Source of the DNA: Polaromonas sp.
Lineage (GTDB): Bacteria > Pseudomonadota > Gammaproteobacteria > Burkholderiales > Burkholderiaceae_C
Assembly: GCA_013298815.1 (NCBI GenBank)
Contig: JAAFJF010000002.1
Coordinates: 2,191-66,190 of the forward strand
Direction of reading: 5' to 3'
Length of the DNA: 64,000 bases
Every line of letters begins with the position of its first letter. The first letter of the stretch is position 1. The notes beneath the pieces were generated by a model that saw nothing but the letters and a program-made list of their open reading frames with translations, did not search any database and was not told the DNA's origin. The position numbers and the translations under genes were made by a program. Below, one piece after another: positions 16,589 through 47,080 of the stretch.

Positions 16589-17746
16589 CTAATGCTGATT
16601 GATACTTGGTGCCCGTCGTTCTGGCGGCACAGTCACGGCGATTTCAGAATTCAGAATTTGCCACAGCTGACTCAAACGGCTGACCGCTTCAGCCGAAGTA
16701 TCTGGCTCTGTTGTTTTGCTATTCTGACTTAACGAATCTCGCATCACATAAGTCTTAGGTTTTTTCTTCAAGGTAATCTCGGTATCCAAAATTCGCCACA
16801 GCATACTGAGCTTCTCATTAGCTTCAACAGTCGTGTCCGATGCCGTCACAGAGTCGCTCCCGGCATCAGATTGCCGCTTGTTAGCGATTTCTGTATTCAA
16901 TACGCGCCAAAGCTGTCGTAAAACTGCGGACACTTCTTTGGTTTTTTCCTCTACACCAGCTTGAGTGTTAGAAGAATCGCCTTGGCGTTTAAAAGCAATA
17001 TCTGTGTTTAAAACCGACCACAGCTGCCCCATGACCCCAGCAGCTTCATCTAACTTTTCTTGGTGTAATTTGAGTTCCGCTTCGGTAGCTGGGATAGTTT
17101 TATTGTTTTCATCAGTTTTAAGCACAATATCTGTATTTAAAACTCTCCACAACTGTCCCAATACGTCTCCCGCATCTTTACTGTTAGGGGCGTCCGGTTC
17201 TTTGCTAGCATTGGCTGATGCGCTCCAGGAGATATCAGTGTTCAAAACACGCCAAAGCTGGTTAAGCACATCTGCGCTGTCTTTTGCGGGTTTTACCAGC
17301 CCAGTGCTGTCCGCTGGCTTTGCGTTTGCAGGGGAAAATGTTAGTGCATCACCTTCATCATCATTTGCGAGGTGGTCGATATTTTTGAGACTTTTAGATT
17401 CATAAGTAGGTTCAGCGCCAACAGCCGCAATGTGACCTTTGGTTTGAAGCACGCTCAACAAAGCGTAGGTTTTATCAACCGGTAATTTCAAGCGGCGAGC
17501 GACTAAAAAACCAACCATGGGCCGTTTTTCTAGCAACGCACAAATTAGCTTCATCGCATCAACCAAATCGCCATGCATATTGCCTAAATTTGGCCACGAC
17601 TCTAAGCGCAGCAAGCACAACATAAATTGACTGTCCAGCCTGCGAATGGTGACGGCATAAGCAATGCTCCAATCAGCAGCCGAAGTGGTTGTCCTTGATA
17701 TTGCTAAAGCCATGTGCTTATTCAGTGAAGATGTGTTACTTTTCAA
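16589..17746 (-). CDS. repeat protein of unknown function: N-terminal globular domain plus six spaced copies of a QLWRVLNTDI-type motif
   Basis: 385 aa, with a TTG start at 17746 or an ATG at 17713. The motifs are VLNQLWRVLNTDI, VLGQLWRVLNTDI, VMGQLWSVLNTDI, VLRQLWRVLNTEI, LSMLWRILDTEI and LSQLWQILNSEI. The conserved Trp lies at aa 165, 200, 243, 280, 317 and 362. The linkers are rich in S, T, D, E and K. I cannot assign a family. Confidence 0.6.
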   Translation of the reverse strand: MKSNTSSLNKHMALAISRTTTSAADWSIAYAVTIRRLDSQFMLCLLRLESWPNLGNMHGDLVDAMKLICALLEKRPMVGFLVARRLKLPVDKTYALLSVLQTKGHIAAVGAEPTYESKSLKNIDHLANDDEGDALTFSPANAKPADSTGLVKPAKDSADVLNQLWRVLNTDISWSASANASKEPDAPNSKDAGDVLGQLWRVLNTDIVLKTDENNKTIPATEAELKLHQEKLDEAAGVMGQLWSVLNTDIAFKRQGDSSNTQAGVEEKTKEVSAVLRQLWRVLNTEIANKRQSDAGSDSVTASDTTVEANEKLSMLWRILDTEITLKKKPKTYVMRDSLSQNSKTTEPDTSAEAVSRLSQLWQILNSEIAVTVPPERRAPSINQH

Positions 17747-17956
17747 ACTCAGCAGCTAGCAATATGAACCGCTAAGTCATTTGATATTCCAGCATGTTAC
17801 TAACGTTAATATTAGCAATATACGAAACAAAATACAAACAAAAGTATACAGACAGTTGACCGAATAAGTTAACTTTTGCACCAATCTAAGCAAAGCAAGC
17901 TCAAAAACCAGTGACTTAAATCACGCATTTCACATAAACTTATGTAGGCAAATTTT

Positions 17957-18472
17957 TCAATGATGCAGTTTCCTGATTTTGAACATGCTCAAAATTGCTA
18001 TCAATGCAAGACTGCAAAAACACGCAAAAGACCAATTCGCAATCGATCCACCTAAAAAGGTCCAATCAACTTTGGTGCAATCACCAGAACCCTTCAAAAT
18101 CATAGGAACAAGGTTTTGCAGCGGAAACGTCTCAATCATGCCGTAAATATCGCGCCCACACGATGCGATTTCAGGCGGGTACCACTGAAGCCAGCTTTGA
18201 CGCGCTGCCACAAACGCTCCACCCAGCGCGGTGATGATAACCAACCAAGAAGCGCTGATTTGAATGCCTCTTATCCCAGTAGCCGATGCAATAATTGCCC
18301 ATACAGCTATTAAAATAATAGCATATCGTTGCACAATACACATCGGGCATGGCTCCAAACCGCCAACGTGTTGCAAATAGAAGCCAAAACAAAGCATGGC
18401 AACGCAGCCCACAGCTATCAAAGCCATGATTTGTCTAAAACTAAACCGGTCTAAAAAACTCAAAGCATTCAA
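17957..18472 (-). CDS. dsbB: disulfide bond formation protein B
   Basis: 171 aa with four TM helices, the first periplasmic CxxC (EPCPMCIVQRY) and a second Cys pair (SCGRD...GDCTKVDW). Confidence 0.85.
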   Translation of the reverse strand: MNALSFLDRFSFRQIMALIAVGCVAMLCFGFYLQHVGGLEPCPMCIVQRYAIILIAVWAIIASATGIRGIQISASWLVIITALGGAFVAARQSWLQWYPPEIASCGRDIYGMIETFPLQNLVPMILKGSGDCTKVDWTFLGGSIANWSFACFCSLALIAILSMFKIRKLHH

Positions 18473-26372: not shown

Positions 26373-26400
26373 AGTTTTTCCCTTTGTCCACTCCACTTTG

Positions 26401-26460
26401 TTCACTATACTTTTTATAGCTGCTTAGGCAATAAATACGCTGGCTAGAGGCATATTTTTA
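26401..26460 (+). repeat. dispersed intergenic repeat, copy 4
   Basis: It reads TTCACTATACTTTTTATAGCTGCTTAGGCAATAAATACGCTGGCTAGAGGCATATTT. Confidence 0.85.
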
Positions 26461-26487
26461 TCTCAAACAACTCTAATTTCTGAGATT

Positions 26488-26748
26488 TCAGCTCAGCAGC
26501 TTGTCGTAGTCAGCGTGCGAACCAATCCAAAACCACTGAACACCTTCTTCTACCGAAACGCCCAAAGCTCGGTATGAAATACCAACGCGAACGCTTCGAA
26601 AGGCGGTGCTTTTGATGTGTTTGAAATGTAGTGAAGGATGCGCGGGGTTTTGCTTCAAAAGCTCGAAATTGCTACGCGCCATGTCTTGAACATAACTGGG
26701 TATAGCGTCAAAACAATCCCAAAACTTGCTAGAAGTGAAATGCTTCAA
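26488..26748 (-). CDS. RelE/ParE-superfamily-like type II toxin
   Basis: 86 aa. KFWDCFDAIPSYVQDMARSNFELLKQNPAHPSLHFKHI...RSVRVGISYRALG...WFWIGSHADYDKLL has the size and pattern typical of small mRNA-interferase/ParE-like toxins. It shares a 4-nt ATGA overlap with the upstream small ORF. Confidence 0.6.
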   Translation of the reverse strand: MKHFTSSKFWDCFDAIPSYVQDMARSNFELLKQNPAHPSLHFKHIKSTAFRSVRVGISYRALGVSVEEGVQWFWIGSHADYDKLLS

Positions 26749-26945
26749 AGCTCCCGCGCCTTGCCCAGCTTGTACTCTGCCACGGCTTCAGCTGCAAATA
26801 CATTCAACTTGCCGGCGGTAGCGTCAGACTCCAGCTGAGTATCCCAAGCCTGTGCGTCAAACTTGGCAAACCATGAACGAAACTCTGCCAAATCTTGCAT
26901 GGGCAATTGGGCAATAGCTTGTTCGATAGATTGGACATTGGTCAT
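26745..26945 (-). CDS. cognate antitoxin (small acidic protein)
   Basis: 66 aa from the ATG at 26945 (MTNVQSIEQAIAQLPMQDLAEFRSWFAKFDAQAWDTQLESDATAGKL...). The track's longer 115-aa version (start 27092) runs through intergenic repeat-like sequence, so I rejected it. Confidence 0.55.
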   Translation of the reverse strand: MTNVQSIEQAIAQLPMQDLAEFRSWFAKFDAQAWDTQLESDATAGKLNVFAAEAVAEYKLGKAREL

Positions 26946-27109
26946 GGGTATGCTCCTGAGTTGCTTATATTTTAATCGTTTTGAGTGAAAACGAAGATTC
27001 TGTGCCTTACCTCCCACTTTGAAAAAGAGGGATTGAAGGGGATTTAAAACGCGGCAACCATCCAAACTTGAGGTCGCAAATTGCGATATCAAGTTTTCAA
27101 ACCACTCAA

Positions 27110-27170
27110 TTCACTATACTTTTTATAGCTGCTTAAGCAATAAATACGCCGACTAGAGCCATTATTATGC
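27110..27170 (+). repeat. dispersed intergenic repeat, copy 5
   Basis: It reads TTCACTATACTTTTTATAGCTGCTTAAGCAATAAATACGCCGACTAGAGCCATTATT, and is near-identical to copy 4 over the first 45 nt or so. Confidence 0.85.
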
Positions 27171-27282
27171 CTATTTTATGCGGTATTTGTTGTGTAGACC
27201 TAGGGCGGCTAGGAATAGCAGCATTTTCTATTTCATTTTCATTGACTCTTGAAAATAGTAAACGACACGAAATATTTAACCT

Positions 27283-28191
27283 TTAAGTAGCATGAGTTTT
27301 AATATTTGAAGATACTTCTAGTATTGCATCATTCACAGTAGGATTAATGACATGCGAATCCAAATTTGCAGCTAATATTTTACAATTAATAATGAGATCA
27401 ATTACATCATCTCTATTAATGTTTACTTTTCCACCGTCTTTTTCGTAACCAGCACGATGTACGCAGTCATGCCTTTTAAGTACTGCCTGAAAAAGCCAAG
27501 AAATATTTCCAAAATCATAATTCAATACCGAAGTATACATGGGCTTTATTTTTTTTAAGTCATGAAAAATTAAACTTTTCAAATATATTTCAACTGTATT
27601 TTTTATTTGTGCACTCTCTTGATATATATCTTTCAAAGATAATTTTCTTTTACCAAATTCAGGATCAGTTTCTAATAATTTTTTAATTAAACTATCTGAG
27701 TTTGTCACTTCTCGTATAAATACTGAGGAAAGAAACTGTTCAGTTGCCGCGACAACATGCGCGTACAGCATTACTAATAAACTAAACTCTGTTTCAGAAT
27801 CTAGCTCCTGCATCAAAAGTTTATTTATACTAGAAACATGCTTTTTAAAAATTTCGAATTGCACTGTTGAAGGTGTTTCCCACTGAAATTCAGTTGAATC
27901 ACTTGTATCAAATATTTCAATTAACTCAATATCTGTATTATCTGGTAACCCTTCAATTTCACCATACCCACCGCCAAAACTAACATAAAGATTAATTTCA
28001 AATTCTTTATGACAGCTCTCGCAAACTGCTGAACCGTCTTGAATAACCTGACTGTCACGCGATTTTTCTGCCGAATAGTTAGGTTCAGGTACAAAAATTT
28101 TCTCACTCTTAACTGCTGCATTACATATGTCACAAGTAAACTTAACTGTCAATGACTTAATACCGAACGAACTAAAGCCAAAAGAACTCAA
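27283..28191 (-). CDS. zinc-ribbon + HEPN-like (R-x4-H) protein, candidate defence/abortive-infection effector
   Basis: 302 aa with a TTG start 7 nt after AAGGAG. It has two CxxC pairs (C20/C23 and C57/C60). The C-terminal helical half contains LYAH (aa 142-145) and KRHDCVHR (R240-x4-H245, nt 27457..27474). It is strongly AT-rich: my hand counts are 12/60 and 16/60 G+C in two lines, against 35/60 in a line of the next gene. Confidence 0.6.
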   Translation of the reverse strand: MSSFGFSSFGIKSLTVKFTCDICNAAVKSEKIFVPEPNYSAEKSRDSQVIQDGSAVCESCHKEFEINLYVSFGGGYGEIEGLPDNTDIELIEIFDTSDSTEFQWETPSTVQFEIFKKHVSSINKLLMQELDSETEFSLLVMLYAHVVAATEQFLSSVFIREVTNSDSLIKKLLETDPEFGKRKLSLKDIYQESAQIKNTVEIYLKSLIFHDLKKIKPMYTSVLNYDFGNISWLFQAVLKRHDCVHRAGYEKDGGKVNINRDDVIDLIINCKILAANLDSHVINPTVNDAILEVSSNIKTHAT

Positions 28192-28352
28192 AGTTTTCTC
28201 CTTTGCACAACTAGCATTTTAAATTTGTATCCGTCCAGCCATTCTAAACACTTGATTCAAGCTTAAACACCCTCCTTATATGTAAAAATTCATATAACAA
28301 ACGAACTACAAAGTATTTTGCAATCTAAAGACTTTCCCATAAAGTCACCCCC

Positions 28353-47004: not shown

Positions 47005-47080
47005 TCCTCAATAGCTCAGTTGGTAGAGCGCCGGACTGTTAATCCGTAGGTCCCTGGTTCGAGCCCAGGTTGAGGAGCCA
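47005..47080 (+). tRNA. tRNA-Asn (anticodon GTT)
   Basis: 76 nt. The acceptor stem is TCCTCAA/TTGAGGA. It has the D-arm AGCTCAGTTGGTAGAGC, the anticodon loop CTGTTAA, the T-arm GGTTCGAGCCC and an encoded CCA. Confidence 0.95.

Follow-up and report, generated by a model that had tools for sequence, protein, structure and literature searches.

Six tethered tryptophan helices in a Polaromonas protein related to accessory proteins of small-GTPase operons

We analysed a 64,000-nucleotide stretch of a Polaromonas sp. genome (GenBank assembly GCA_013298815.1, contig JAAFJF010000002.1, positions 2,191 to 66,190; hereafter the window) and describe here a minus-strand gene whose product carries six copies of the motif [DE]-x2-D-V-[LM]-x-Q-L-W-R-V-L-N-T-[DE]-I, called the LW motif below after its Leu-Trp pair. 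Judged by sequence, the protein is an offshoot of a family of adaptor proteins encoded in small-GTPase operons, and the LW motif is not new; it is the amplified form of a helix that occurs in single copy in that older family. We favour, tentatively and with considerable doubt, the reading that the gene encodes a cytoplasmic multivalent docking adaptor or scaffold derived from the accessory protein of an MglA-type GTPase/Roadblock module, in which the helices would do the docking.

The older family was recovered by a profile search with the six-repeat family over 1.84 billion representative proteins, which returned 119 matches. Eleven of these, at E < 1e-30, make up the multi-repeat clade itself, including fragments; the roughly 100 others are proteins of 110–250 amino acids (aa) that have the same N-terminal domain, with the pattern SWPxL...RICALLxRKPTVGxLV...GH, and that end, past a variable linker, in one LW helix of the form [KR]-L-W-x-[RK]-L (for example SLVSKLWQRLTGH and SFLKKLWKKLIS). 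The hidden Markov model alignment runs collinearly, with the relatives' terminal helix falling on repeat 1 of the window protein. Profile–profile comparison by hhalign (A2 against A5, the relatives' profile) aligned window aa 14–102 with aa 80–169 of the relative P0213 at a probability of 99.4% and an E value of 1.5e-21, and tblastn with the family protein from locus L008 matched window positions 17674..17243 at E 3e-17. It is the single occurrence of the helix in the older family that leads us to regard the LW motif as its amplified version. No Pfam or NCBIfam model covers the single-helix relatives; NCBIfam likewise gave no match for the window protein, and the relatives' profile found chance-level matches only in the PDB.

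In every Comamonadaceae-type locus with downstream DNA (L008, L009/L016/L017, L010, L015, L018 and L021/L022), a gene for a GTPase of about 190 aa starts some 10–20 nucleotides (nt) after the relatives' gene, and Roadblock/LC7 genes follow the GTPase wherever the locus is long enough. The GTPase matched PF03029 with 46.6 bits (cut-off 27) and, weakly, Arf and Roc; it has a P-loop (G1) of the form GPxGxGKT and a DAR G5 motif, and lacks [NT]KxD. The Roadblock/LC7 genes scored 54.7 and 69.6 bits (cut-off 23). The three GTPase features are unusual traits reported for MglA Groups 2 and 3 (PMC4316618), and the Group 3 operons of beta- and gammaproteobacteria encode a conserved unknown protein with a predicted winged helix, MglA and one or two MglB proteins (Wuichet and Sogaard-Andersen 2014, PMC4316618). 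The operon at L021/L022 is minimal and has exactly this Group 3 plan. Taken together, the shared domain, the single LW helix and the GTPase operons of the relatives point to the descent of the window protein from such an adaptor.

Longer operons of the relatives add an ABC-ATPase–phosphatase fusion and a ferredoxin–globin fusion, with a Crp/FNR gene upstream. The extended form is conserved at L008 (8001–13747), L009 (8001–13605) and L010 (8001–12644), where it comprises the accessory protein, the MglA-type GTPase, a fusion of an ABC ATPase with a dual-specificity phosphatase, three or four small Roadblock-like proteins and a fusion of a 2Fe-2S ferredoxin with a truncated globin; a metagenome locus scan with a narrower alignment (A4) yielded eight loci. 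The globin and the ferredoxin suggest that the extended operon encodes a redox-, oxygen- or nitric oxide-sensing G-protein module, and we found no description of such an operon with a ferredoxin–globin fusion in the literature examined. Stand-alone Bac_globin (truncated haemoglobin) genes also occur at L007 (5217–5609), L012 (883–1275) and L013 (10944–11360), at a distance of a few genes from family members that lie outside the GTPase operon. They recall the globin fusion of the operon itself, and may reflect coincidental synteny.

Closer relatives of the window protein were collected by a word-indexed search over 5.8 billion proteins. The 95 homologue clusters recovered are all unnamed or 'hypothetical' and all come from metagenomes or metagenome-assembled genomes (MAGs); they derive from Comamonadaceae-type MAGs, and the three genome matches were MAGs labelled Polaromonas sp. 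or Pseudomonadota. The original prediction, made from the window sequence, had called the protein an orphan. This did not stand: there are about 95 orthologue clusters and, beyond them, some 100 clusters of distant relatives that share the domain, have a single helix and are encoded beside MglA-type GTPase/Roadblock genes. Lack of conservation of the open reading frame (ORF), or a disrupted frame, in relatives would have spoken against the prediction; the ORF is conserved, and its frame was intact at every related locus fetched.

Nearly every full-length member has all six copies, which about 80 orthologue clusters preserve at matching positions, and each copy has its own signature across orthologues. 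Among the 88 cluster representatives with an N-terminal domain, 75 have six copies, three have five, three have four, four have three, two have two and one has a single copy. That one-copy variant (P0098) retains only copy 6, and copy 6 is retained in most, not all, of the reduced-copy variants. P0095, a predicted protein of 291 aa in which a BPD_transp_2 permease domain comes after one LW motif close to the N-terminus, is probably a miscalled or chimeric ORF, since the repeat gene often has a sugar ABC permease as its downstream neighbour.

The gene is present in the window as a minus-strand ORF at 16589..17746, of 385 aa when counted from a TTG at 17746. Since most homologues are 370–374 aa long and have N-termini of the form MA(L/V/I)A, the true start is likely the ATG at 17713, giving a product of 374 aa. 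In this numbering the Trp residues of the repeats are aa 154, 189, 232, 269, 306 and 351. The positions first reported, 165 to 362 in the 385-aa numbering, are the same residues plus 11, and the six spaced amphipathic copies are confirmed. Each repeat unit is about 21 residues long and, with Trp taken as position 0, reads E(−9), A(−8), D(−6), V/R/K(−5), L/M(−4), Q(−2) and L(−1), then W(0), R(+1), V(+2), L(+3), N(+4), T(+5), D/E(+6), I(+7), K(+10) and R/K(+11). The linkers are 22–48 residues long in the window protein, weakly conserved and variable in length among homologues. The helix cores have net charges of −1 to +1, hydrophobic moments of 0.48–0.64 and a central Trp, and the repeat tail as a whole has a net charge of −10 and an isoelectric point (pI) of 4.95. 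A search of all six frames of the 64-kb window found the pattern LW..L[ND][TS][DE]I nowhere else.

Copies 1 and 2 are 93% identical as protein and 64% identical as DNA, and their codons differ at 9 of 13 identical residues; among all the copies DNA likeness is 60–80%. Because likeness at this level is low and shared residues are written with different codons, the sequences indicate that the copies are old and not recent duplicates. In an alignment of 82 homologues the motif cores were the best-conserved part of the protein, with a mean commonest-residue frequency of 0.91, against 0.82 for the N-terminal domain and 0.51 for the linkers, and the polar positions of the core were kept as well (Q−2 in 83% of homologues, N+4 in 85%, T+5 in 76% and D/E+6 in 98%). 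Both the conservation values and the codon differences agree with the earlier proposal that the linkers diverge while selection, and not recent duplication, keeps the motif.

The motif fits no named repeat family, as had also been suggested. The string LWRVLNT was not found in the literature searched, and a profile of the repeat unit (A6) gave chance-level matches only against the PDB at E up to 10. A beta-clamp-binding motif (QLxLF or QLxLxL) was rejected, as position 4 of the motif is Arg. One characterised family did appear to match, an outcome that would have spoken against the earlier prediction: Pfam assigned PF20465 MmeI_hel to the whole window protein with 52.5 bits and E 8.6e-14, and precomputed annotation lists it for nearly all homologues, with those matches flagged 'faint'. 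Taken at face value, the repeats would be copies of the MmeI helical spacer and the protein a relation of Type IIL restriction–modification enzymes, a reading to which we give next to no credence. Scanned alone, single repeats scored 14.2, 15.5 or 16.1 bits or gave no match, against a gathering score of 27, and each covers about 20 of the 75 model positions (about 39–60). The whole-protein score is high because six weak matches to one short helix are summed, and we rejected family membership as an additive artefact. Pfam found no nuclease, methyltransferase or target-recognition domain in the window protein, and a sequence search against the PDB at E up to 10 gave chance matches only and no restriction enzyme, MmeI included.

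The N-terminal region had been described as globular and winged-helix-like, and weak family matches and the modelling of a relative are compatible with this. Pfam gave weak matches to TrmB (E 0.016) and DUF742 (E 0.079, 13.3 bits), and no helix-turn-helix (HTH) family reached the Pfam cut-off for the window protein. The domain is basic, with a pI of about 9.7 and a net charge of +5, in contrast to the acidic tail. AlphaFold2 modelled the single-helix relative P0213, with a 66-sequence alignment, at a predicted local distance difference test score (pLDDT) of 86 and a predicted template-modelling score (pTM) of 0.74; its compact domain (residues 10–165) lies above pLDDT 90, the linker (171–192) below 50 and the terminal LW helix (194–205) at 64–73. 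In this model the terminal helix appears tethered and not packed on its own domain, and the region equivalent to the N-terminal domain of the window protein is a three-helix unit with flanking strands (helix–strand–three-helix) at pLDDT > 90. A Foldseek search of the model against the PDB returned nothing significant (best E 0.57). The full-length window protein was modelled with a pLDDT of 48 and a pTM of 0.18, with a helix at each motif (six helices of 14–33 residues, pLDDT 50–60) and four in the N-terminal domain; about 75 residues at the start of the P0213 domain are absent from it, which may explain the low confidence of its own N-terminal domain in the model. Cys58 of the ICALL motif (nt ~17540–17542; aa 125 of P0213) is invariant throughout the six-repeat clade and also in the single-helix relatives, and could be structural or, given the dsbB, YggX and globin neighbours, redox-sensitive.

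The analysis shows the homology of the domain, the layout of the protein, the GTPase operons around the relatives and the pattern of conservation; helix docking and its candidate ligands are our inference. The ancestor would have been an accessory protein of proteobacterial MglA-type small-GTPase/Roadblock modules, built of a partner-binding domain, a flexible linker (disordered and some 50 residues long in the relatives) and one short amphipathic helix with invariant Trp and Leu. In the window lineage, the extra N-terminal subdomain of the relatives (~75 residues) has been lost; the gene has left the GTPase operon for its present place after dsbB; the tethered helix has been amplified to six on acidic disordered linkers; and each copy has grown longer and been altered to Q-L-W-R-V-L-N-T-[DE]-I. 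Compared with those of the relatives, the helices are no longer cationic, have Val in place of Arg at +2 and carry a new, near-invariant N-T-[DE]-I extension; the change at +2 makes their hydrophobic face wider. Each LW helix would grip a folded partner by one face (L, W, V, L and I), so that six copies could hold several copies of a ligand, or one ligand assembly at high avidity, and the N-terminal domain would supply the link to the signalling module. Candidates for the ligand are a small GTPase or Roadblock protein from another part of the genome, and the N-terminal domain of the protein itself. We favour docking over lipid binding because the polar residues are near-invariant and the tail is acidic.

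Several points weigh against this reading. A GTPase or Roadblock gene is missing from the window and from all nine multi-repeat loci, and the ancestral partner may for that reason be absent from the genomes of the multi-repeat lineage; a tblastn search of the window with the relatives' GTPase, Roadblock, ABC-phosphatase and Fer2-globin proteins found no GTPase or Roadblock gene, and an unrelated ABC ATPase at ~39.8–40.5 kb resembled the ABC portion alone. P0122, a relative with a single helix, is not encoded in a GTPase operon. The AlphaFold2 model of the window protein is of low confidence and shows no docking, and the DUF742 link is sub-threshold. Lastly, the single helix of the relatives has an anchor chemistry of the MinD/FtsA type, and membrane binding may have been its ancestral role, as suggested by its HeliQuest-type D factor of 0.85–1.98.

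Extended to the window protein, this last point becomes an alternative that we regard as rather doubtful, namely that the six LW helices form a membrane-binding array, descended from a MinD/FtsA-like membrane-targeting sequence, in which weak affinities are summed. The product would then be a peripheral membrane protein, which might, as ALPS motifs or perilipins do, sense curvature or the packing of lipids. The relatives' helices would suit such a role: they are cationic (charge +1 to +4), sit at the extreme C-terminus past a disordered linker and have hydrophobic moments of 0.51–0.70, their D factors equal or exceed those of the E. coli MinD (1.04) and FtsA (1.57) membrane-targeting sequences, and their position +1 beside Trp varies (Q, H, K, A, L or D) while the flanks stay basic. 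The moments and central Trp of the window cores are consistent with it too, as are the KR- or KK-containing patches that trail copies 3–5, and the conservon complex is called membrane-associated in the title of Komatsu 2006 (cited in PMC4316618). However, the near-zero charge of the window cores, with a D factor below 0.68 in five of the six, together with the net charge of the tail and its acidic linkers, argues against binding to anionic bacterial membranes, and the nearly invariant N, T, D/E and Q of the polar face are not required for lipid binding.

The helices might also pack against one another, within or between chains, into a bundle of helices or a coiled-coil body, with long loops at its surface, that would act as an oligomeric structural unit. 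Helices of about 20 residues with a broad a/d/e-type seam (−8, −5, −4, −1, 0, +2, +3, +7 and +9), acidic residues capping the N-terminus and basic ones at the C-terminal end are compatible with this, as are the helix that AlphaFold2 puts at each of the six motifs and a hydrophobic face broader than that of the relatives. We nevertheless hold a bundle to be unlikely: AlphaFold2 gave no confident packing, the natural variants with one to five copies would be poorly tolerated by a fixed bundle, and the linkers are poorly conserved and differ in length. It is very unlikely that the protein is a DNA-binding transcription factor, with a basic winged helix on DNA and an acidic tail that serves as an autoinhibitory DNA mimic or recruitment region. 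Such a factor would match the charge contrast between domain and tail and the weak TrmB and other HTH matches, and a winged HTH has been predicted in published work for both the Group 3 accessory protein (PMC4316618) and MfpC (PMC11343762). Yet the putative recognition helix, KTYALLSVLQTKG, is mostly hydrophobic, HTH families stay below the Pfam cut-off, and the sole biochemically studied DUF742 protein acts as an exchange factor for guanine nucleotides (GEF), for which no DNA binding has been shown (PMC11343762); the peak of conservation at the LW core would also be left unexplained.

The coordinates of the gene, its parts and its surroundings are collected in Table 1. The dsbB gene lies directly upstream on the same strand, also at L004, L006, L007, L011 and L012, and always so in the loci examined; the neighbour on the far side differs among loci (argA, a sugar ABC transporter or pfkB) and is a sugar ABC transporter in the window. 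Promoter-like sites in the spacer between dsbB and the repeat gene do not exceed in number the expectation from shuffling. The dsbB neighbour raised the idea of a secreted or periplasmic product, which we rejected, as the sequence read by eye has no obvious signal peptide or hydrophobic segment. An ORF of 146 aa at 16965–17405 (+), antisense to the repeat gene, contains a mirror repeat (ISVFKT, three times) and is the opposite-strand shadow of the repeats, not a separate gene. Rfam gave no match near the repeat gene, and its sole match in the window is a tRNA gene at 47005–47077 (+). Elsewhere, positions 26400–28200 have a G+C content of 0.38, against about 0.49 for the window, and may be a small acquired island; within this stretch an ORF of 302 aa at 27283–28191 (−) has an N-terminal CxxC...CxxC and a C-terminal R-x4-H (RHDCVH), the latter reminiscent of HEPN domains.

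Table 1 Repeat gene, its predicted parts and upstream features (window coordinates)
Feature	Position	Strand	Description
LW helix copy 6	16640..16681	−	SRLSQLWQILNSEI, then AVTVPPERR
LW helix copy 5	16775..16816	−	EKLSMLWRILDTEI, then TLKKK
LW helix copy 4	16886..16927	−	AVLRQLWRVLNTEI, then ANKRQ
LW helix copy 3	16997..17038	−	GVMGQLWSVLNTDI, then AFKRQ
LW helix copy 2	17126..17167	−	DVLGQLWRVLNTDI
LW helix copy 1	17231..17272	−	DVLNQLWRVLNTDI; collinear with the sole C-terminal helix of distant relatives
Linker 1	17273..17407	−	aa 103–147; acidic, poorly conserved; pLDDT < 50 in the window-protein model
N-terminal conserved domain	17408..17674	−	aa 14–102; SWPNL motif, invariant Cys58 (ICALL), KRPMVGFLVARRL; winged-helix-like
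Repeat protein coding sequence	16589..17713	−	374 aa; mechanical ORF runs to TTG 17746
Promoter-like site	17843..17872	−	TTAACT, 18-nt spacer, TATACT; between dsbB and the gene; consensus match only
dsbB, upstream neighbour	17957..18472	−	same strand; conserved synteny; context only

Ras-like GTPase modules of the MglA Group 3 and conservon-like kinds are widespread in proteobacteria, and their third component has neither a Pfam family nor an assigned mechanism. The repeat protein is now tied to that component, whose likely working end would be the invariant Trp helix on its flexible tether. The six-copy variant amounts to a natural gain-of-valency experiment, so that the ligand of one LW helix would inform the whole family, and its identity would tell whether bacteria, like eukaryotes, build multivalent peptide-array scaffolds round G-protein signalling. 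Should the helices only bind membrane, the protein would be no more than a modest curiosity. Selection clearly acts on this striking repeat, and its tie to small GTPases makes the function that we infer for it testable.

The closest known counterpart is the Group 3 accessory protein. Relatives of the window N-terminal domain fill the same slot, before an MglA-type GTPase with a DAR G5 and one or two Roadblock/MglB genes, and they likewise lack a Pfam family and are predicted to include a winged-helix region; they may be the same family as the accessory protein of Neisseria and Xanthomonas. The window gene differs in standing after dsbB and before a sugar ABC transporter with no adjoining GTPase or Roadblock gene, and its product in lacking the N-terminal subdomain of about 75 residues and in having six LW helices, not one. 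This multi-repeat, dsbB-linked, GTPase-uncoupled form was not found in the literature searched. A remote relationship to DUF742 (PF05331; CvnC/MfpC) is possible on the evidence of sequence. MfpC, a DUF742 protein, is a GEF for the neighbouring GTPase MfpB (PMC11343762). The relatives share with this family a small winged-helix-like type and GTPase/Roadblock neighbours, which the window gene lacks. DUF742 is the Pfam family that the largest number of relatives matched (4 of 23 and 3 of 66 at E < 1, with HTH_15 giving a lower single E value in the set of 66), and its alignment falls on the corresponding stretch of the window protein, aa 50–103; the scores of both the window protein and the best relative (20.9 bits, E 3.3e-4) fall below the 27-bit cut-off. 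Unlike the DUF742 conservons, the proteobacterial operons of the relatives have no histidine kinase (CvnA). To our knowledge, DUF742 proteins have not been described with a repeat tail.

For the helix itself, the mechanistic precedent is M. xanthus MglB, whose tethered C-terminal helix docks allosterically on MglA, outside the active site, and promotes nucleotide exchange (PMC6785124). It too is short, is flexibly tethered to a regulator of an MglA-type GTPase and acts by docking; it differs in belonging to a Roadblock-fold protein and in being present once and not six times, and we claim no sequence likeness. The terminal helix of the relatives resembles the MinD and FtsA helices in position, length, hydrophobic moment and positive charge, whereas the window copies are near neutral, five of six are internal, the tail is acidic and the polar face is conserved. 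For the array, the nearest parallels are the GoLoco/GPR repeats of AGS3 and LGN and tandem WH2 domains, in which helical peptides of about 20 residues on disordered linkers each bind one nucleotide-binding protein. The layout of the LW array is similar, by analogy only and with no sequence relationship. An extension of this analogy, which we think unlikely to hold, is that the LW array is the bacterial counterpart of the GoLoco/WH2-type arrays, in which one tethered helix of a Ras-like GTPase regulator would have become six, forming a hub or condensate-like assembly that gathers GTPase/Roadblock partners, or the protein's own N-terminal domain, away from the GTPase operon.

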